Below, in pieces: positions 1 to 9,949 of a DNA stretch of 9,949 bases. Every line of letters starts with the position of its first letter. Position 1 is the stretch's first letter. Source of the DNA: a virus (taxonomy: Duplodnaviria > Heunggongvirae > Uroviricota > Caudoviricetes). A program made the translations under genes and the position numbers. Where the stretch lies: IMG/VR virus record IMGVR_UViG_2695420478_000007; one strand, 5' to 3'. Below the pieces are notes generated by a model, which searched no databases, was not told where the DNA came from, and saw nothing but the letters and a program-made list of their open reading frames with translations.

Positions 1-15
1 GAGTTGATGGCTCAT
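1..15 (-). CDS. Possible 5' end of a leftward gene that continues beyond the window start (only 5 codons visible: M-S-H-Q-L)
   Basis: ATG at 13-15 on the - strand preceded by a GAGGGA Shine-Dalgarno-like motif 4-5 nt upstream; too short to identify. Confidence 0.2.
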
Positions 16-283
16 GATGTCCCTCTGGGATGCGCTCCGGATGAATATGATGATCTCATATCAGGAACTTGTTCGCACCTTCCCTAGGTTTTTTCAGATA
101 GTTGCATTTTTTAAAAAGCATCCTAAGTTCGATCTCAGTGTCTATCTGGGGCCCATTTCTGTCCCATATATGCCCCAAAAAAACTCCTCAACAGATAAGT
201 AGTTTTTTCATGGAGTTACGCGTAAAATCAATAACGGCTGGAAATCATTCAATACTCGCACTATCGAAAAATTTACCAGCCAA

Positions 284-322
284 CCGCAGCACGTTCTTGC
301 ATAAGGCGTGTCTGCGGTTTTT
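284..322 (+). terminator. Candidate intrinsic terminator hairpin (stem CCGCAG-CACG / CGTG-t-CTGCGG, 13-nt loop, followed by TTTTT)
   Basis: Interrupted ~10-bp GC-rich stem read directly from the sequence, followed by T5 at 318-322; the gene it would terminate is unclear. Confidence 0.3.
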
Positions 323-641
323 CAACTATTCAGATACATCACTCCCATCACATTCATTCCTCCACATCAAAGGCATATAGGCTATATCACCTTGATATTT
401 TTCTTCTTCAGATAAAAACTGTTATCTATGTATACTTTTAAACCCAATCCGTGTAGAGTCTCTGCATAAGATAGTTTGCAGTTGCCACTTCAGCTTGCGC
501 CATAAACCGCCTGATTTTTGCCGCCATCTGTTAGCATTCCTGTATACCTGAAACGACAATGTTTATCTACGAACTTTAAGAACACCCAGGATAAAAATTG
601 TCAACTATATCATATATAACACATTACTAATTCGAGGCTAT

Positions 642-755
642 ATGAACAGCATACTGATAATCACTTCGCTCCTTATCATATTCAGCATTTTTAGTCATGC
701 TCTAATAAAATTAGGGATTGGCATATCCAATAACCCAGACAAAACCGATGTATAA
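642..755 (+). CDS. Hypothetical 37-aa small hydrophobic protein ([37 protein letters not shown]), predicted single transmembrane helix
   Basis: ATG at 642 with GAGG 4-5 nt upstream; N-terminal 20 residues are strongly hydrophobic; lies in the AT-rich leader upstream of ydfK; below the ORF-track length cutoff. Confidence 0.3.
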
Positions 756-823
756 GTCAACATATCCTGAATCAGACATACAATATCGCAATGAAAATCA
801 ATAATATTTTAAGGAATATATTC

Positions 824-1057
824 ATGAAATCAAAAGACACCCTAAAGTGGTTCCCTGCGCAGCTTCCTGAAGTCAGAATTATCCTAGGGGATGCTGTAGT
901 GGAAGTAGCAAAACAGGGAAGACCTATCAATACCAGAACATTGCTTGATTACATTGAAGGAAACATAAAGAAAAAATCATGGCTGGATAACAAAGAATTA
1001 TTACAAACAGCGATATCAGTTCTTAAAGACAACCAAAATTTAAATGGTAAAATGTAA
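824..1057 (+). CDS. ydfK: YdfK/YnaE-family small prophage protein (77 aa), reported cold-shock inducible
   Basis: ORF 791-1057 contains MKSKDTLKWFPAQLPEVRIILGDAVVEVAKQGRPINTRTLLDYIEGNIKKKSWLDNKELLQTAISVLKDNQNLNGKM from the internal ATG at 824, which has AAGGA 8 nt upstream; recognised from memory as the YdfK/YnaE family. Confidence 0.85.
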   Translation: MKSKDTLKWFPAQLPEVRIILGDAVVEVAKQGRPINTRTLLDYIEGNIKKKSWLDNKELLQTAISVLKDNQNLNGKM

Positions 1058-1373
1058 TATAATAAACTTACTTTTTTATCATTTTTCCACTTTAACAACA
1101 TTTTGCTCCACTTTTCCACGACCAAACAACTTGAAATCTGGTTAAAATAACACGCAACACTATTCTTCTTCCTTGAGTCCGCCCGGAACTCGAAAAACAA
1201 ACCGAGTTAAAGCCATTTTTCACAAAATCGATTTTGGGTCTCACCAAAGTTACGGGGTTGCATACGCATTCGTTTATTTTCGAACGTGTACATACAAATA
1301 TGCACAAAAATAATCAAAATTATTTTCTGAGATGCATTATGATATGAACACCAATTTCGTATAGAGTCTCACT

Positions 1374-1964
1374 ATGTCTCGAATTTTTGCTTACTGTCGG
1401 ATATCAACGCTGGATCAGACCACCGAAAATCAACGCCGGGAAATCGAAAGTGCAGGTTTTAAAATCAAACCTCAGCAAATAATCGAAGAACACATTAGCG
1501 GCTCAGCAGCAACCAGTGAGCGTCCTGGTTTTAACCGGTTGCTTGCTCGCCTGAAATGTGGTGATCAATTGATTGTGACAAAACTGGATCGCCTTGGTTG
1601 TAATGCAATGGATATCAGGAAAACAGTGGAACAACTGACCGAAACAGGTATCAGAGTGCATTGCTTAGCATTGGGGGGCATTGACCTGACCAGTCCAACA
1701 GGAAAAATGATGATGCACGTAATTTCAGCAGTCGCTGAATTTGAACGAGACCTTTTACTTGAACGCACTCATTCCGGGATAGTAAGAGCCCGCGGCGCAG
1801 GGAAACGTTTTGGTCGACCACCTGTGTTAAATGAAGAACAGAAACAGGTGGTATTCGAACGAATTAAGTCAGGTGTAAGTATAAGTGCCATTGCCCGGGA
1901 ATTCAAAACCTCGCGGCAAACCATTTTAAGAGCCAAAGCAAAACTTCAGACACCTGACATATAA
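1374..1964 (+). CDS. pinQ: Serine recombinase of the invertase/resolvase family (Pin-type), 196 aa, apparently intact
   Basis: N-terminal catalytic motif YCRISTLDQ (catalytic Ser11), conserved resolvase core (LDRLGCN...), and a C-terminal helix-turn-helix ([19 protein letters not shown]); the tfa gene is adjacent and convergent. Confidence 0.9.
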
Positions 1965-1985
1965 AAAATAATCTCGGTGTGAGAT
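1963..1985 (-). terminator. Weak candidate terminator between convergent pin and tfa (stem ATCTC / GAGAT, loop GGTGT, U-tract on the - strand)
   Basis: 5-bp stem followed on the - strand by a T-rich run (complement of AAAAAATAAT at 1963-1970); low GC content. Confidence 0.25.
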
Positions 1986-2061
1986 GCTTTACGTCTTCCA
2001 AGCCCCCTTCCTTGCCGTAAATGGAGAGATACATCTAATTATAGAATTTATATGTTTTACC

Positions 2062-2637
2062 CTACGGCAGTGCTGGCCATTCAATATCCGGTGCAGTTGA
2101 TGTATCAACACGGTTCAGCAACACCCGATACTTTTTCCAGGCTTCCAGCAACAAGGTTTCTTCCTCCGTTGCGATCTCCAGATCCACAGCATCCTGAAGC
2201 GGCGCTATATGCTCACTGGCTATCTGCATCAGGCTGTTTTTTGTTTCTTCCGCCTCCCGGATCCGGAACAGTTTTTCTGCTTCCGTATCCTTCACCCAGG
2301 CTGTGCCGTTCCACTTCTGATATTCCCCTCCCGGCGATAACCAGGTAACATTTTCCGGTAACGGACCGAGTTCAGAAATAAATAACGCGTCGCCGGAAGC
2401 CACGTCATAAACCGTTTTACCCCGATGATCTTCAACGAGATGCCACGATGCCTCATCACTGTTGAAAACAGCCACGAAGCCTGCCGGAATATCTGGCGGT
2501 GCAATATCGGTACTGTTTGCTGGCAGACCTGTATGAGGCGGAATATATGCGTCACCTTCACCAATAAATTCATTAGTTCCGGCCAGCAGATTATAAATTT
2601 TTATGGTCCGTGGTTGTTCACTCATTCTGAATGCCAT
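2062..2637 (-). CDS. tfaQ: Tail fibre assembly protein (Tfa chaperone), 191 aa
   Basis: Sequence is typical of lambdoid Tfa proteins ([18 protein letters not shown]...); its start overlaps the stop of the upstream tail-fibre fragment (TAATG coupling). Confidence 0.9.
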
Positions 2638-2945
2638 TACGCAAGCCTCACAATATAGTTAAATGCGATGTTTTTGACGGTGTTTTCCGCGTTACCAGCA
2701 GCGTTAACGGTGATGGTATGTCCATGTGAACCAATCGCAACGGAGTGCGTATGAGCACCAATACCGACAGTATGTGCGTGTGCACCTGCGCTTGCAGCAG
2801 TACCCGATACAGAGTGCGTATGAGCGCCTGCAGAAGAAGTGTTAACACTGTATTTAGAATAATCAGGTGATCCACTTCCCGGAGCACCACTGGAACCACC
2901 TGAAACAAATGTCATCGAATGGGTATGTGCACCGGCTGTCCCCAT
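2637..2945 (-). pseudogene. stfQ: C-terminal fragment of a side tail fibre protein (Stf), 102 codons, with repeated GAHTHS/GAHAHT His-x-His motifs; N-terminal portion absent
   Basis: Gly/Ser/His-rich repeats typical of phage tail-fibre tips; the frame begins at the junction with the J fragment; coupled to the downstream tfa. Confidence 0.8.
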
Positions 2946-4192
2946 GCATTTACCGCCCGGACTGTCAGCCTGTAATTTCCCAGCGCCAGCTGCGTGAAGC
3001 GATATGTGGTTTCCGTCGTCCGGGCCGTGCTGACCAACCGCTCACTGCCGTCGTCCGCTGCCACGGTCAGGCGAAGCATAAAGCTCACCCCCTTCACCAC
3101 CTTCGGCGTGTCCCAGCGCGCCAGCACCTGGTATTCCCCGCTGTCTGCGGTGGCTTCTGCGGTCAGGTGCTGAACTGCTGGCGGCGTGACACCATTCACC
3201 GTGCCGCTCTGGTCACCGTCAAAGTGCGCCCCGTTATCCACGATGGCTTCTTTCTCCGGTACATGCTGCACGGCAGTGATGGCATACGTACCGTCATCGT
3301 TCTCACGGATACTCACACAGCGGAACAGGCGCTGACGCAGCGTCGGCAGCTTCAGCCCCCACACGCTGTACTCGGCAACGCCGTCAGGAACCCGGCTCAC
3401 TTTCACCTTCACGCCGTCGGTGACGGACTGGACCTCCACGCTCACCGGATTACCCTGCCCGTCAACCAGGCTTATCAGCGTGGTGCCGGAGGATGGCAGC
3501 GTGATTTCACGGTCGAGCGTCAGTGTCCGCGTCTGGCTGTTCACCGCCAGCACGCGCCCGCCGATGCTGATCCCCGCATAGTCATCATCACAGATTTCAA
3601 TGACATCACCTGGTACATGGCGAAGCCCTTCGGCACCCACGCTGAAGTCCACGGTCTGCGTTTCCAGCAGTTCCGTTTTAATCAGCCACAGCCCGGCTCG
3701 GTGCGCCTGCCCCCGCCTGGTACAGCCAAAGGCATCCATCTTCGTGACGTTACGACCGTAACGGGCAATGGCCTGCGTGTCCTCCACAAGCTCTGTCGCC
3801 GTCTCCCAGCCGTTATCCGGGTCAATCCAGTTCACCTCAACGGCATTATGGCGGTCCTTCAGGGCGCTGAAGCTGTAGCGGAACGGCGCGCCATCATCCG
3901 GCATCACCACATTACTGCGGTTATAGGTCCACACCTTATCTGATGGTCGGTCCTGCACGAACGTCAGCGTCTGCCCGTTCCATACCGGCATACAGCGCAT
4001 CGCCGAGCAGAAATCACTGAGAACATCCCACGCCTTACGCTGTGTGGTCAGCCAGGCATTACAGGTGATGCGCGGCTCCGTGCCGCCAAAACCGTCCGGC
4101 ACCGACTGGTCGCAACACTGGCCGATGACATACAGCGCCCATTTATCCACATCTGCCGCACCAAGACGTTTACCCATGCCGTAGCGCGGGTG
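2912..4192 (-). pseudogene. Internal fragment of the lambda J-like tail tip / host specificity protein (about 420 codons of central region), lacking N- and C-termini
   Basis: Open frame 2912-4279 contains ...GMGKRLGAADVDKWALYVIGQ...NAWGQ, recognised as the central portion of lambda J; homology begins near 4192 and ends near 2936, where the frame switches to the Stf C-terminus. Confidence 0.8.
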
Positions 4193-4427
4193 GCTGGAGA
4201 TCTGTCTCGCTGGCCTGCCGCAGTTCTTCAACTTCCCGGCGCAGCTTTTCGTTCTCAATTTCAGCATCCCTTTCGGCATACCATTTTATGACGGCGGCAG
4301 AATCATAAAGCACCTCATTACCCTTGCCACCGCCTCGCAGAACGGGCATTCCCTGTTCCTGCCAGTTCTGAATGGTACGGATACTCGCACCGAAAATGTC
4401 AGCCAGCTGCTTTTTGTTGACTTCCAT
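4170..4427 (-). pseudogene. nohQ: N-terminal fragment (about 79 aa) of the terminase small subunit Nu1 homolog, truncated by deletion fusion to the J fragment
   Basis: MEVNKKQLADIFGASIRTIQNWQEQGMPVLRGGGKGNEVLYDSAAVIKWYAERDAEIENEKLRREVEELRQASE matches lambda Nu1 N-terminus including its helix-turn-helix; the frame then diverges and stops; the ATG lies 190 nt from the first base of the cohesive end, as in lambda. Confidence 0.85.
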
Positions 4428-4650
4428 TGTTCATTCCACGGACAAAAACAGAGAAAGGAAACGACAAAGGCCAAAAAGCCCGCTTTCAGCACCTGTCGTT
4501 TCCTTTCTTTTCAGGGGGTATTTTAAATAAAAACATTAAGTTACGACGAAGAAGAACGGAAACACCTTAAACCGGAAAATTTTCATAAATAGCGAAAACC
4601 CGCGAGGTCGCCGCCCCGTAACCTGTCGGATCACCGGAAAGGACCCGTAA
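4428..4650 (-). other. cos: Lambda-type cos site: cosB region (4428-4604), 12-nt cohesive-end sequence (4605-4616, AGGTCGCCGCCC on +, GGGCGGCGACCT on -), and cosQ-side flank (4617-4650)
   Basis: The - strand reads ...CCGACAGGTTACG/GGGCGGCGACCTCGCGGGTTTTCGCTATTTATGAAAATTTTCCGGTTTAAGG..., matching the joined lambda right end and left end as I recall them. Confidence 0.8.
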
Positions 4651-4652
4651 AG

Positions 4653-4667
4653 TGATAATGATTATCA
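4653..4667. promoter_or_regulatory. Perfect 7-1-7 palindrome TGATAATgATTATCA resembling the Fur-box core
   Basis: Palindrome read directly from the sequence; resemblance to the Fur consensus GATAATGATAATCATTATC is from memory; lies just outside cosQ and about 150 bp upstream of ynfO. Confidence 0.25.
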
Positions 4668-4815
4668 TCTACATATCACAACGTGCGTGGAGGCCATCAA
4701 ACCACGTCAAATAATCAATTATGACGCAGGTATCGTATTAATTGATCTGCATCAACTTAACGTAAAAACAACTTCAGACAATACAAATCAGCGACACTGA
4801 ATACGGGGCAACCTC

Positions 4816-5049
4816 ATGTCAACGAAGAACAGAACCCGCAGAACAACAACCCGCAACATCCGCTTTCCTAACCAAATGATTGAACAAATTAACATCGCTC
4901 TTGAGCAAAAAGGGTCCGGGAATTTCTCAGCCTGGGTCATTGAAGCCTGCCGCCGGAGACTGTGCTCAGAAAAAAGAGTTTCTTCTGAAGCAAACAAAGA
5001 AAAGAGTGACATTACTGAATTGCTCAGAAAACAGGTCAGACCAGATTGA
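4816..5049 (+). CDS. ynfO: Small basic hypothetical protein (77 aa), YnfO-like
   Basis: ORF with Arg/Thr-rich N-terminus (MSTKNRTRRTTTRNIRF...); occupies the position between cos and the lysis genes; weak ribosome-binding site. Confidence 0.65.
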   Translation: MSTKNRTRRTTTRNIRFPNQMIEQINIALEQKGSGNFSAWVIEACRRRLCSEKRVSSEANKEKSDITELLRKQVRPD

Positions 5050-5106
5050 AGCAATTTAGATAATCGTGCAGACTACGCCCCCTCATATCACATGGAAGGT
5101 TTATCT

Positions 5107-5517
5107 ATGGATCAGGTAGTCATTTTTAAACAAATATTTGATAAAGTTCGAAACGATTTAAACTATCAATGGTTTTATTCTGAGCTAAAACGTCACAATG
5201 TCTCACATTACATTTACTATTTAGCCACAGAGAATGTTCATATTGTATTAAAAAATGATAATACAGTGTTATTAAAGGGCCTAAAAAACATTGTGTCTGT
5301 CAAATTTTCAAAGGATAGGCATCTTATAGAAACGACCTCTAATAAGCTGAAATCCAGAGAGATCACATTTCAGGAATACAGAAGAAACCTTGCTAAAGCA
5401 GGAGTTTTTCGGTGGGTTACAAATATCCACGAACAAAAAAGATATTACTATACCTTTGATAATTCATTACTATTTACTGAAAGCATCCAGAAAACTACAC
5501 AGATCTTACCACGCTAA
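5107..5517 (+). CDS. ydfO: DUF1398-family hypothetical protein (136 aa), YdfO-like
   Basis: ORF 5092-5517; the internal ATG at 5107 has GGAAGG 7 nt upstream, so the start is assigned there ([11 protein letters not shown]...). Confidence 0.75.
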
Positions 5518-5525
5518 ACCATAAC

Positions 5526-5554
5526 GTCCGGCTTCTCTCACTCCTGAGCCGGAC
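5526..5554. terminator. Hairpin GTCCGGCT / AGCCGGAC with 13-nt loop, just after the ydfO stop
   Basis: 8-bp GC-rich stem but a large loop and a poor U-tract. Confidence 0.25.
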
Positions 5555-5620
5555 TGCATTGGTTTAATAAAAACCATCAACAATTGTGATTTAGATATTC
5601 GGAACCATTCAAATATAACA

Positions 5621-5645
5621 AAACCCCGTAAAAACGAGGTTTATG
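5621..5645 (-). terminator. Candidate intrinsic terminator downstream of gnsB (stem AAACCTCG / CGGGGTTT with one mismatch, followed by a T-rich tract on the - strand)
   Basis: Hairpin plus TTTGTTATATTT tail on the - strand about 25 nt after the gnsB stop. Confidence 0.35.
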
Positions 5646-5668
5646 GATAAATTTTATTATTGAATACA

Positions 5669-5842
5669 TCAGATTAAATTAATCTTGACATCATAGCTTT
5701 CAAGACCCGTCATTTTTTCCCGTGCGGTAAACTGAATACTGGTAACTTCTTTCCCGGTCTTTTTCTTAAGTTCAATAATTTTTTTTGTTATATATTCAGA
5801 AATATCTGCTTCTGCTTTTGTTTTTAAGTTTTCAATATTCAT
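5669..5842 (-). CDS. gnsB: GnsA/GnsB-family small protein (57 aa)
   Basis: Not in the ORF track (below cutoff). Hand translation gives MNIENLKTKAEADISEYITKKIIELKKKTGKEVTSIQFTAREKMTGLESYDVKINLI; GAGGAA lies 5 nt upstream of the second ATG of an ATGATG doublet; recognised from memory as the GnsA/GnsB family. Confidence 0.8.
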   Translation of the reverse strand: MNIENLKTKAEADISEYITKKIIELKKKTGKEVTSIQFTAREKMTGLESYDVKINLI

Positions 5843-6013
5843 CATTTCCTCTTTTAGTCTGTTATGACTTTCCAGTTACACAGTAAGTCGATTATATGGT
5901 GCAAACGTGTAAAAGATAAGATGAAACATCGCAATAATCAACATACGATAGTCTAAATTTTACACAAACAGACAAAGAGAATTTTCCTGAATTATCAATG
6001 CAATAGCATCAAA

Positions 6014-6169
6014 TCAACTCAAGAGCCTTATTGCTGCTTCCAGAATTTCTTCTGAAGTAACATGTCGATCCGCGGCTACATAAATGACTTTATGATCTCC
6101 GGTCAGAGATGGAAACCCTGCGGCCATTACAGTAAGGTGTGTTTTTTCGCCATTTGGATATTCACGCAT
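6014..6169 (-). CDS. ynfN: Small hypothetical protein, YnfN-like (51 aa from ATG at 6169; in-frame alternative starts at 6244 and 6286)
   Basis: Open frame 6014-6286; the longest version overlaps the cspI terminator U-tract, so a downstream start is more likely; GGAG lies about 10 nt upstream of the 6169 ATG. Start choice is uncertain. Confidence 0.5.
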   Translation of the reverse strand: MREYPNGEKTHLTVMAAGFPSLTGDHKVIYVAADRHVTSEEILEAAIRLLS

Positions 6170-6288
6170 GATGGTGTTAACTCCAGTCATCGCTGGCACT
6201 ACCACTGCTGGTTCAGAGTTAAAAAAAACTATGATTTTTTTCATGATGTTACCGTAGTATGTGAGTATCCATCGAATAGACACCAAGC

Positions 6289-6310
6289 AAAAAAGCTCCC
6301 GAAGGAGCCT
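6289..6310 (-). terminator. Intrinsic terminator for cspI: stem GCUCC / GGAGC with UUCG tetraloop followed by U6 (on the - strand)
   Basis: The - strand reads GGCTCCTTCGGGAGCTTTTTT; classic stable tetraloop hairpin plus U-tract. Confidence 0.7.
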
Positions 6311-6515
6311 TCATTTTCACTTTTTTAAATCCAACGACAGACGGCTGGCATTTAAGTATTGTGAAATATTATCAAATGTAATCATCATTGATTTACAAAA
6401 GATACATTTTGCCCCGAAAGGATTCATGTCAGAAACATCAAAAGATGATGTTCTATACTGGGAACCATGACAACACGGGCATCTAAAGTGAATATGGTTT
6501 GTAATATTGTCTACC

Positions 6516-6728
6516 TCAAAGCGCCACTACATGAACAGCGGCAGGACCTTTAGGTCCGTTCTCAATACCAAATTCAACTTCCTGATTCTCAGTTAATGTT
6601 TTGAAATCGTTGCTCTGAATTGCTGAGAAATGGACAAACACATCTTTGCTGCCATCTTTCGGCGTGATGAAACCAAAACCTTTTTCAGGGTTAAACCATT
6701 TCACTAAACCAGTCATTTTGTTAGACAT
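6516..6728 (-). CDS. cspI: Cold shock protein, CspA family (70 aa)
   Basis: [38 protein letters not shown]... carries the RNP1 (KGFGFI) and RNP2 (VFVHF) motifs; C-terminus and prophage position fit cspI. Confidence 0.9.
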
Positions 6729-6908
6729 AATTATTACCTTTTGAAGAAATTAGCCCTTGGGCAGAATGGTCCGAAAAAAAATATCAGAGAGAAAAACCAA
6801 CAAGGAAATCTCAAGAGGTACAAATAATAAAATTATAACAATGACTGCTTCAGATAAATTTGTAACAAACCAGAACACCATTAACGCATGATTAACCACC
6901 CATAGCAA
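6729..6908 (-). promoter_or_regulatory. cspI promoter and long 5' UTR: -35 TTGCTA (6903-6908), -10 GTTAAT (6880-6885), predicted start near 6872, leader about 145 nt
   Basis: The - strand motif GCGTTAATG...GGTTTG is also found upstream of cspB in this window and resembles the cspA promoter and 5' leader as I recall them. Confidence 0.5.
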
Positions 6909-7090
6909 GGATTACTTTTGTAAAGAAAAACACAGCAATGAAAGAATGGCTTTATTTATTAATAAAACGTGTCATTCTGATTAAGACCTTTTATCTTACC
7001 CTTAAGATTTCAGGAATTTTGGCTCATGGAAGAGTCCTTTTTATTTAAATTTTACATTCCGCGATGTAAATGTTCCGATTTAATATTACC

Positions 7091-8114
<1,024 letters not shown>

Positions 8115-8118
<4 letters not shown>

Positions 8119-8426
8119 AGATATTTATGATGAGGACGCTCGTGCTTATTGGCAGGATTTTCAATCTTAAAGGAGTACTGATGCTGCAGATAAGACTCAA
8201 CTTTTTCTGACAATTTTTCTGCTACTTCCAGGAAGACTTGCCGGACGCTCCTTCTGGCTGCTGCCTCATAAAACTCCAGCGCAGCTCCTTCAACACGGTC
8301 CATGGCGACATCCAGGTCAAAAATTTCACCGTCAAAGCGTTCTTTGTCCTGTAAGGCTACAGTTACCGTAACTTTATTCTCAAAATTACGGACTCCTTTC
8401 ACAACCAGTTCATAGTCTTGAGTCAT
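8115..8426 (-). CDS. ydfR: Hypothetical protein (103 aa), YdfR-like, located between holin and endolysin
   Basis: Open frame with start 4 nt after the holin stop and a stop overlapping the endolysin start; acidic protein with no recognisable motif. Confidence 0.8.
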
Positions 8427-8430
8427 TGGA

Positions 8431-8646
8431 TTACTCTCCTCTCGCAGCCTTACGCCTGTCTTCTTTAATCTTGAAATAAAGATTTGTCAGATACGTCAGC
8501 AGGCCAAAAACCAGGCTACCCAGCACACCGATTGCAGCCCACTGTGACGGAGTTACTTTATCGAGTAACTGCAATGCCCAGAAACCAGCATTACCCGCCG
8601 ATGTGCCATAGGCAACACCTGTTGTTAACTTATCCATTGATTTCAT
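8431..8646 (-). CDS. essQ: S21-type pinholin with dual-start motif MKSMDK (71-aa antiholin from 8646, 68-aa holin from 8637)
   Basis: [71 protein letters not shown]: two transmembrane segments and a charged C-terminus, like phage 21 S; the longer ORF start at 8721 is unlikely. Confidence 0.85.
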
Positions 8647-8865
8647 ATCCTCACCCCGATGTACACGGATGGTGCAATATGTTTGAAAAGATCGGAGTCT
8701 ACGGGGTAGTTTTGACAGCACACGTTGTTCTCAACGGCGCTAAAAAAACATACACATTAAAAATGTGGGTAATTATTTTGAAAGAAAGTCATATATAAAA
8801 TAATAATACGAGAAATGTTTTCATATTTAGTGTACTGTATACGGCCATTTATACAGGAAAAGCCT

Positions 8866-9036
8866 ATGTCAGAACGTAAAAACTCAAAATCACGCCGTAA
8901 TTATCTCGTTAAATGTTCCTGCCCAAACTGCACCCAAGAGTCAGAACACAGTTTTTCAAGAGTACAAAAAGGTGCCCTTTTGATCTGCCCTCATTGCAAC
9001 AAAGTATTCCAGACAAATCTTAAAGCTGTAGCCTGA
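8866..9036 (+). CDS. Small zinc-ribbon protein (56 aa) with two CxxC pairs (CPNC...CPHC); possibly one of the small proteins described in this prophage (ynfU?)
   Basis: ATG at 8866 with AGGAA 8 nt upstream; candidate promoter -35 TTGAAA (8778-8783), 17-bp spacer, -10 TAATAA (8801-8806); the gene name is an uncertain recollection. Confidence 0.6.
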   Translation: MSERKNSKSRRNYLVKCSCPNCTQESEHSFSRVQKGALLICPHCNKVFQTNLKAVA

Positions 9037-9095
9037 TTGATTTTATTAGTAACAAGTATTTTTTATATTTTAATAATATATTTAAAGCAGATAAT

Positions 9096-9120
9096 AAAAA
9101 ACCCGCCTGAGCGGGTTTGA
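9096..9120. terminator. Strong bidirectional intrinsic terminator (stem AAACCCGC / GCGGGTTT, loop CTGA); the stronger U-tract is on the - strand
   Basis: The - strand reads AAACCCGCTCAGGCGGGTTTTTTATTAT; the + strand has A6 before and TTT after. Sits between the convergent zinc-ribbon ORF (+) and the cspB-side transcript (-). Confidence 0.75.
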
Positions 9121-9399
9121 GATTGTGGTGCTTTTTGTGGGAGTCATCCACTTACGCACTTTGTTTTGCCATGCCAGCAGTTAGCTTCTGCTGTAAAACT
9201 ATTCATGCAGCAAACCTGCACTTCACCACAATGGTTAGCATACTTTTCCTGATTAAGATTTTGCCAAATATGCTAGCCATTGTTTCATGTATTGGACCTC
9301 CTTACTTTTTATTAAAGAGATCCAATATTCACTACTCTGTCCGTATCTCTACTCAGGCATCAGCCTTCTTCGTTATCGTATACAGACGAGCGATGAATT

Positions 9400-9615
9400 T
9401 TAATCAGTAATGATGACATTTGCTGCTGCAGGACCTTTAGCACCACTCTCTATAGAGAAGGTAACCTTTTGACCTTCAAATAAGGTTCGATAATTATCAT
9501 TCTGAATCGCAGAAAAATGCACAAACACATCTTTACTACCATCAACAGGAGAAATAAAGCCGAAACCTTTATCAGCGTTAAACCATTTTACTAAACCAGT
9601 CATTTTATTTGACAT
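9400..9615 (-). CDS. cspB: Cold shock protein, CspA family (71 aa)
   Basis: [38 protein letters not shown]... with RNP1 and RNP2 motifs; position upstream of the lysis cassette fits cspB. Confidence 0.9.
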
Positions 9616-9811
9616 TCTACATTCCTTAACTTGAGCCTTTCGGCATAAATGGTTTGCATAACAGAAACGACTTCGTACTTAATTGGAGAGACTCAAAGAA
9701 GGAATAAGTGAATAACACCTGAAATGAGAACTGCTTTAGTAAACTACTTCGTATATCGTCTGTTCTTCAAACCGACGCAATCATTAACGCATAGTTGAAC
9801 ATATGAAGCAA
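9616..9811 (-). promoter_or_regulatory. cspB promoter and long 5' UTR: -35 TTGCTT (9806-9811), 18-bp spacer, -10 GTTAAT (9783-9788), start near 9775 (GGTTTGAAGAACAGAC cold-box-like), leader about 160 nt with CCGAAAGGC motif
   Basis: Resembles the cspA promoter and leader (ACGGTTTGACGTACAGAC; CGCCGAAAGGC) as I recall them; AT-rich UP-like element upstream; mirrors the cspI upstream region. Confidence 0.5.
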
Positions 9812-9949
9812 TGTTTATTTTAGACATCCAGCCATCTTCAACCCCGGTAATGACTCCAACTTATTGATAGTGTTTTATGTTCAGATAATGCCCGATGACT
9901 TTGTCATGCAGCTCCACCGATTTTGAGAACGACAGCGACTTCCGTCCCA

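Follow-up and report, generated by a model that had tools for sequence, protein, structure and literature searches.

How should a complete-looking cos packaging site be understood when the genes for the packaging machinery it would serve have been lost? The question is raised by the 9,949-nucleotide stretch of DNA analysed here (referred to as the window), in which a lambda-type cos is retained. One answer, put forward by the first-pass annotation, is that a superinfecting lambdoid helper phage could cut at this site and mobilise the DNA beside it.

The locus is the cryptic lambdoid prophage Qin of Escherichia coli. Of 5,426 complete E. coli genomes, 574 contain 80% or more of the window, with pinQ, tfaQ, rrrQ, rzpQ and csp morons annotated, and positions 4191–9845 match the MG1655 Qin prophage with 99.79% identity over 5,655 bp, with a further match of 97.9% over 2,746 bp. 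The K-12 prophage (cos–nohA) shares the gene order ynfO–ydfO–gnsB–cspI–rzpQ–rrrQ–essQ–cspB, the Nu1 homologue in MG1655 Qin is annotated as nohA, and ydfJ adjoins the left end in genomes which carry the same variant as the window. Qin, nohA and the adjoining cos are already standard E. coli annotation, and what we describe here is a rare deletion variant.

Two cold-shock morons, cspI and cspB, have been inserted into the prophage late region, and Rfam matches at the gathering score to cspA-type thermoregulator leaders were found upstream of them (6489–6874 and 9384–9776, both on the minus strand), as was a match to IS009 inside tfaQ (2096–2294, minus strand). The two edges of the window (1–83 and 9846–9949) probably reflect IS-associated rearrangements; one genome match covers positions 1–9845 (H2), another 84–9949 (H1), and K-12 covers 84–9845. 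In NZ_CP144926.1 (2455258–2501000), a seemingly complete lambdoid prophage of 45–50 kb lies between the left end of Qin and ydfJ, with int, a Q-like antiterminator, a DUF1441 small terminase and genes from portal to J, and with copies of ISKpn26 flanking it; no lambda-type cosN was found in this prophage.

The position of the cos is given by two abutting BLAST matches to the lambda reference genome (NC_001416), with window positions 4191–4616 corresponding to lambda 427–1 (98.1% identity) and positions 4617–4978 to lambda 48502–48141 (98.3% identity). Both matches are on the minus strand, which places the cos on this strand within positions 4428–4650, and the joint at 4616/4617 is a closed cos like that of a circularised or integrated lambda genome. 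The 12-nt cohesive end of cosN, GGGCGGCGACCT, is found at 4605–4616 (minus strand) as an exact match to lambda with the flanking bases also identical, and the predicted nick sites are at 4617/4616 and 4605/4604. This is the sole cosN in the window when up to two mismatches are allowed. The packaging-termination element cosQ (GGGTCCT) is at 4640–4646 (minus strand), corresponding to lambda 48473–48479 and lying exactly at −29 to −23 from cosN bp 1, and it falls within the terminal 289 bp of the lambda right end, over which the window is 100% identical. On the other side of cosN, the I2 bend at 4567–4599 (minus strand) is identical to lambda (its position at lambda bp 18–50, the critical bp 30–35 and its essential role were described by Feiss and colleagues, PMC4856287), and there is no difference over lambda bp 1–52, which covers both cosN and I2. 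The spacing from cosN to R3 is as in lambda, with the first indel only at bp 138.

The lambda right-end homology beyond cosN (4617–4978, minus strand) also includes the 5' part of ynfO (4816–5049, plus strand) and, between cosQ and ynfO, the sequence TTAAGTTGATGCAGATCAATTAAT at 4737–4760 (minus strand), some 120–145 bp from cosN and within a stretch identical to lambda. This sequence has been reported to bind FNR in vivo in K-12, where it occurs in the nohA/ydfO and nohB intergenic regions (PMC1802558).

All the elements of cosB could be located as well. R3, AGGTGTTTCCGTTCTT, is at 4552–4567 (minus strand; lambda bp 50–65) and carries the substitution C53T, while the IHF site I1 at 4531–4543 (minus strand; AAACATTAAGTTA on the plus strand of the window) is identical to lambda and is the site annotated at bp 74–86 of phage 434. 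R2, CTGTCGTTTCCTTTCT, is an exact 16-mer at 4493–4508 (offset 109–124) on the plus strand, and so inverted relative to R3 and R1, and R1, TGTCGTTTCCTTTCTC, is exact at 4451–4466 (minus strand, offset 151–166) and as annotated in phage 434. The R3–I1–R2–R1 series keeps the lambda order, orientation and spacing throughout, and the Nu1 start codon follows at 4427, 190 bp from cosN bp 1. The earlier claim of an almost base-for-base match to lambda is therefore right for cosQ, cosN and I2, which are identical, and too strong for cosB, which differs from the reference by C53T, A73G, T102C, A137G, one base missing at 138, and C151T (in lambda numbering, one base outside R1 and also found in phage 434). 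A subsite-by-subsite alignment nevertheless recovered cosQ, cosN, R3, I1, R2 and R1 with no disrupting mutation amongst them. With symmetric flanks to cosN, cosQ, I2 at its proper spacing and a full cosB all present, the site can be assigned to the lambda cos family on every sequence criterion, and it has cosQ, cosN and I2 in common with the cos of lambda, 434, 2H10 and PhiR70_1, as well as the order, orientation and spacing of the cosB elements and the distance at which Nu1 starts (one bp more in reference lambda).

The differences in cosB need to be considered further, as they bear on whether the site could still be used. We surveyed the alleles in 40 IMG/VR contigs in which the cosN core is present and Nu1 and A follow lambda colinearly over 2 kb or more, and amongst these the window alleles were found at 6/40 (T53), 25/40 (G73), 24/40 (C102), 7/40 (G137) and 5/40 (T151) loci. 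The one-base loss at 138 was found in all 40 intact loci as well as in the DE3 lambda and phage 434, making reference lambda the odd one out at this position, and it is this loss which gives the 190 bp from cosN to Nu1 in place of the 191 bp of the lambda reference. The Nu1 ATG had been said to lie at the expected distance, and it does, as 190 bp is also the distance in the DE3 lambda, in 434 and in 40/40 of the IMG/VR loci; we therefore rejected the shorter distance as a defect, since every relative but the lambda reference has it.

Close relatives could be identified amongst known phages. Over lambda 1–427, the window differs from PhiR70_1 at two positions, cosN bp 7, which is PhiR70_1's own variant, and bp 134, where the window carries the lambda base, and over the same interval one cosB base differs from 2H10. 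No viable phage was found with exactly this combination of cosB alleles, the nearest being one base off at bp 134. As each allele occurs in phages with intact terminase genes, the cosB differences are standing alleles of such phages and not the result of decay. Neither the cos nor the Nu1 stub described below carries private mutations and, by sequence, the cos of the window equals the sites of phages with intact terminase genes, several of which have been isolated.

It might be argued that the site is nonetheless a dead relic, with the change at the edge of R3, the particular combination of alleles, or the chromosomal setting blocking terminase assembly. C53T alters a base of the CGTTTCC core, which is conserved across R3, R2 and R1; amongst the R sites it is R3 that matters most, and the cosN–cosB geometry is sensitive (PMC9026076); and the exact haplotype is unseen in isolated phages. 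However, of R3 (bp 50–65), TerS contacts bp 55–63 with bp 56, 58 and 59 being critical (PMC9026076), and all of these are unchanged in the window, where the sole R3 difference is C53T. A 35-mer carrying T53 is found with 100% identity in 18 phage records, including 434, 2H10, 1H12, PhiR29 and PhiR70_1, and with T53 present in 434 plus 17 other records and outside the contacted bases, we rejected it as a disabling mutation. The spacing is also unchanged, I2 and I1 are identical to lambda, and helpers efficiently use the cos of repressed chromosomal prophages (PMC4669245). The chromosomal context could have an influence on the use of the site, but we regard a dead cos as rather improbable.

We also note that the 28-nt cosN core is identical in 118 IMG/VR contigs, in 45 of which the cosB is unrelated to that of lambda after approximately bp 45, and that several of these 45 contigs carry an A-like large terminase gene. 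One cohesive-end core thus serves several packaging specificities.

What has been lost lies immediately to the left of the cos. The truncated Nu1 gene for the terminase small subunit (4170–4427, minus strand) encodes residues 1–79 (with A75T) followed by six out-of-frame residues (PALRHG) and a stop, giving an 85-residue product which matches Pfam Phage_Nu1 with E=1.4e-48 over positions 1–81 of 164. Nu1 had been described as truncated after its DNA-binding N-terminus, and this holds, as residues 1–79 cover the whole of the solved DNA-binding domain (PDB 1J9I, residues 1–68); the fragment also matches 6HN7_B. It differs from lambda by three coding changes, all of them common to 2H10 and/or PhiR70_1, and the NZ_CP144926 annotation lists the remnant as a pseudogene of the terminase small subunit. 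At the deletion junction (4191–4193), lambda 427 in Nu1 codon 79 is joined to lambda 16347 inside J, with the two alignments overlapping by 3 bp. The junction is identical in two further loci (L001 and L063), and in all the exact Nu1–J junction was found in 26 of the 5,426 complete E. coli genomes.

To the left of the junction is a 1.26 kb internal fragment of the tail tip gene J (2932–4193, minus strand; lambda 17608–16347, 92.6% identity), which overlaps an ORF with Pfam Phage-tail_3 and Ig_J matches and is annotated as a host specificity protein J pseudogene. A second deletion joins the lambda 17608 end of this fragment to the end of the side-tail-fibre gene, which remains as a stub at 2637–2843 (minus strand, identified from the lambda BLAST and annotation), and to an intact tfaQ (2062–2637, minus strand; Pfam Caudo_TAP). 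Gene A, all of the head genes and tail genes Z to I are absent from the window. The statement that the terminase, head and tail genes are missing consequently applies to A, the head genes and most of the tail genes, and has to be qualified for the fragment of J, the side-tail-fibre stub and tfaQ, which remain. Compared with lambda-like phages, the cos of the window thus lacks a functional terminase operon (gene A is missing and Nu1 breaks off at codon 79) and is fixed as a single chromosomal copy.

The retention of a DNA-binding fragment beside its own binding site might suggest that the 85-residue product interferes with incoming lambda-type phages by occupying cosB or poisoning Nu1 dimers, with the cos acting as target or decoy. 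The fragment has the complete DNA-binding and dimerisation domain (1J9I) and the portion of TerS solved in 6HN7_B, and lacks the gpA-binding end; it lies directly after the cos, where phage-inducible chromosomal islands (PICIs) have rpp, and the cos and at least Nu1 codons 1–79 were spared in each of four independent deletions. Against this, the nohA promoter fusions of K-12 were weak (PMC1802558), this truncation is confined to 26 genomes with other variants having full-length or differently truncated Nu1, and the three coding differences are common to intact phages and so give no sign of selection. We consider interference by the Nu1 stub highly unlikely.

Comparison of related Qin prophages offers a simpler account of the missing genes. 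Three genomes have the same cosB haplotype and flanks which are 99.95–99.98% identical, but differ in their internal deletions: strain 1332KP keeps lambda 1–956 and 13434–17608, NCTC9040 keeps lambda 1–703, 2177–3470 and 16136–17608, and the window has the pattern lambda 1–427 joined to 16347 onwards. The K-12 Qin adds a fourth pattern, lambda 1–719 joined to 21245 onwards, in which the deletion (719 to 21245 versus 427 to 16347 in the window) and the cosB–Nu1 haplotype are both different. These patterns are not derivable from one another, with the exception that the window could possibly have come from the 1332KP or NCTC9040 type, and this suggests that the left arm was until recently far more complete and has been whittled down independently in each lineage. 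The arrangement in the window is best explained by deletional decay and not by satellite design. The Qin cos would have been orphaned by a deletion that began at Nu1 codon 80 and ended midway through J, and it may have been kept passively, with the recent and independent left-arm deletions having so far stopped before reaching it.

The cos-proximal endpoints of these deletions (lambda 427, 703, 719 and 956) destroy gpA in 4/4 cases and spare the cos and Nu1 codons 1–79 in 4/4 cases, though it should be noted that these are four cases only, chosen by their similarity to the cos-containing window, and so form a small and biased sample. The clustering of endpoints could hint at selection for keeping the cos and Nu1 stub, or against a resident terminase (gpA).

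The first-pass annotation had likened a cis-acting cos without its own packaging machinery to the arrangement of cos-type satellites, and there is a resemblance to the cos-type PICIs (EcCICFT073 and relatives), which also have a lambda-like cosN, no terminase or capsid genes, and a small winged-helix gene after the cos. The likeness does not extend further. PICIs have int, alpA and pri-rep, a private cosB and Rpp, and excise and replicate into concatemers; those of E. coli need int, alpA and pri-rep for excision and concatemer formation (PMC6092414), and their cosB differs from that of the helper and is read through Rpp (PMC9026076). No PICI integrase, AlpA-type activator or pri-rep was found amongst the ORFs of the window, where pinQ is an invertase-type resolvase and not a PICI integrase, and the private cosB/Rpp pair is absent, as the cosB is of the lambda type and the next gene encodes Nu1 residues 1–79. 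With these functions missing and with a single cos, the satellite comparison fails, and the Qin locus is not a PICI or other satellite.

Even so, the orphan cos might behave like a satellite and allow a lambdoid helper to package and transduce Qin or the neighbouring chromosome at a useful frequency, in the manner of the cos-type PICIs. The cos is intact by sequence, a chromosomal cos can be used by a helper terminase in trans (PMC4669245), and a plasmid with a cloned lambda cos can be transferred by lambda and phi80 (PMC6092414). However, transfer was <1 for islands which are locked in the chromosome (Δint or ΔalpA) with their cos still present, and the authors of that study held that PICIs are transferred because they excise and replicate to form concatemers (PMC6092414). 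Qin is without int, alpA, pri-rep and rpp, no replication genes are annotated in it, the K-12 intQ is a pseudogene disrupted by an IS, and neither the ORFs of the window nor the Qin annotation of two genomes includes an excision or replication module. The cosB is of the helper's own type and not private, and the architecture is rare (26/5,426 genomes) and one amongst several deletion variants.

The absence of a second cos also counts against transduction from the Qin cos. In the tandem-prophage assay of Feiss and colleagues, the helper terminase acts in trans on the cos of repressed chromosomal prophages, packaging runs from one cos to a second cos one genome length downstream, and 1–4 virions are produced per cell (PMC4669245). 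These passive prophages, like cosmids, combine a cis-acting cos with terminase supplied in trans by a lytic helper, the substrate being repressed in the chromosome; they have two cos in the same orientation one genome length apart, whereas the window locus has one. No second cosN with up to one mismatch was found in approximately 60 kb downstream in NZ_CP144926, which carries the exact variant, or in 56 kb downstream in MG1655. The prophage beside Qin in NZ_CP144926 was considered as the source of a second cos and rejected, as it has a DUF1441-type small terminase and is without a lambda-type cosN. The cos terminases need a second cos to finish filling the head, and without the terminal cut the protruding DNA blocks tail attachment (PMC6687093); lateral transduction is not done by cos phages (PMC12829572). 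Excision of Qin was also not seen by De Paepe et al. during lambda infection of MG1655 (PMC3945230). One cos in the chromosome is not enough on its own to mobilise DNA, and we find transduction of Qin or its neighbours at a useful frequency quite unlikely.

The earlier proposal that a helper could cut here and mobilise the adjacent DNA can therefore be divided. Cutting is plausible, with the subsites intact and terminase action in trans being known, and a helper terminase could probably cut the window cos and start packaging leftwards; mobilisation does not follow, as no second cos was found downstream in either of the two genomes and Qin does not excise. When a phage with lambda packaging specificity grows in such a cell, its Nu1/A terminase and IHF would bind cosB and nick cosN, the terminase would stay on the cosB end, and a prohead would fill leftwards with the remnants of Nu1 and J, then tfaQ, pinQ, ydfJ and the chromosome beyond. 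The head would not be closable by a terminal cut, because there is no second cos at genome length and Qin neither excises nor replicates. The realistic products would be a site-specific break in the chromosome, abortive packaging from one end, and a stimulation of recombination with the infecting phage, and mature transducing particles would not be expected from the single Qin cos. Taken as a whole, we consider it probable that the Qin cos was orphaned by deletion and has been retained passively, and that cutting by a helper would lead to breakage and recombination and not to transducing particles.

The products of one-ended packaging are the 'doc' particles of the classical lambda literature, which were reportedly described by Little and Gottesman in 1971 and by Sternberg and Weisberg in 1975, with the packaging size limits of lambda said to have been determined by Feiss et al. 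in 1977 and lambda–qin hybrids said to have been reported by Kaiser in 1980 and Espion et al. in 1983. A limited literature search returned nothing usable on experimental work with the Qin cos, on nohA function, or on one-ended lambda particles.

A precedent for recombination at such a site is provided by DLP12 (cos–nohD), a K-12 prophage which has kept a full-length nohD, unlike the Nu1 of the window. That its cos may be a recombination hot spot at which terminase cuts has been discussed before, with De Paepe et al. finding that 10 of 19 sequenced lambda–DLP12 recombinant junctions were directly beside the cos and proposing breaks at the phage cos and the DLP12 cos alike (PMC3945230).

A change of haplotype at the cos was also found when the window was compared with the K-12 Qin prophage. 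The 5.3 kb rightward of cosN holds 2 differences and the 280 bp of cosB–Nu1 holds 10; divergence then runs at 2.1% as far as the end of the prophage by ydfJ, and the chromosomal flank beyond returns to 99.9% identity. The switch maps to −17 to +53 of cosN with PhiR70_1 and K-12 as references, and was also considered by comparing window positions 84–4616 and 4617–9845 against loci L003, L001 and L130. The divergent module between the two Qin variants corresponds exactly to the cos-to-att arm, running from cosN to the end of the prophage. This points to an exchange in which a DNA end at cosN was involved, which would also be in keeping with helper-driven packaging from the site. We did not accept the switch as proof of cos-initiated transduction, because a crossover anywhere in linear virion genomes leaves such a switch where the cos ends join; across the 118 IMG/VR loci, lambda-like elements combine left and right cos haplotypes freely, and a change of haplotype at cosN is nothing out of the ordinary. 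We likewise rejected gene conversion from DLP12 as the origin of the cosB–Nu1 patch in K-12 Qin, as the DLP12 haplotype is unlike both Qin variants.

A more far-reaching reading would take the orphan cos of cryptic prophages to be live entry points for helper terminases, at which either the cut or a DNA end brought to cosN by transduction or injection leads to the entire cos-to-att arm of the resident prophage being replaced, with occasional one-ended packaging of the chromosome alongside. The haplotype switch would then be the footprint of such an event, and the deletion endpoints would reflect selection for the loss of gpA with the cos and Nu1 domain being kept. We regard this reading as doubtful. 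More generally, what remains that would be novel, either an orphan cos acting as an active entry point for recombination or packaging or a Nu1 stub interfering with incoming phages, seems to us unlikely.

Taken at face value, the finding of a cos in Qin is of little weight, and terminase cutting of a cryptic-prophage cos by an infecting phage has already been proposed in print for DLP12. What the locus does make clear is that an intact-looking cos beside deleted packaging genes marks a satellite only when it is accompanied by excision and replication functions, or by a second cos. Were the entry-point reading true, cos phages could move or remodel chromosomal DNA by way of orphan cos sites, contrary to the current view that lateral transduction is done by pac phages only.
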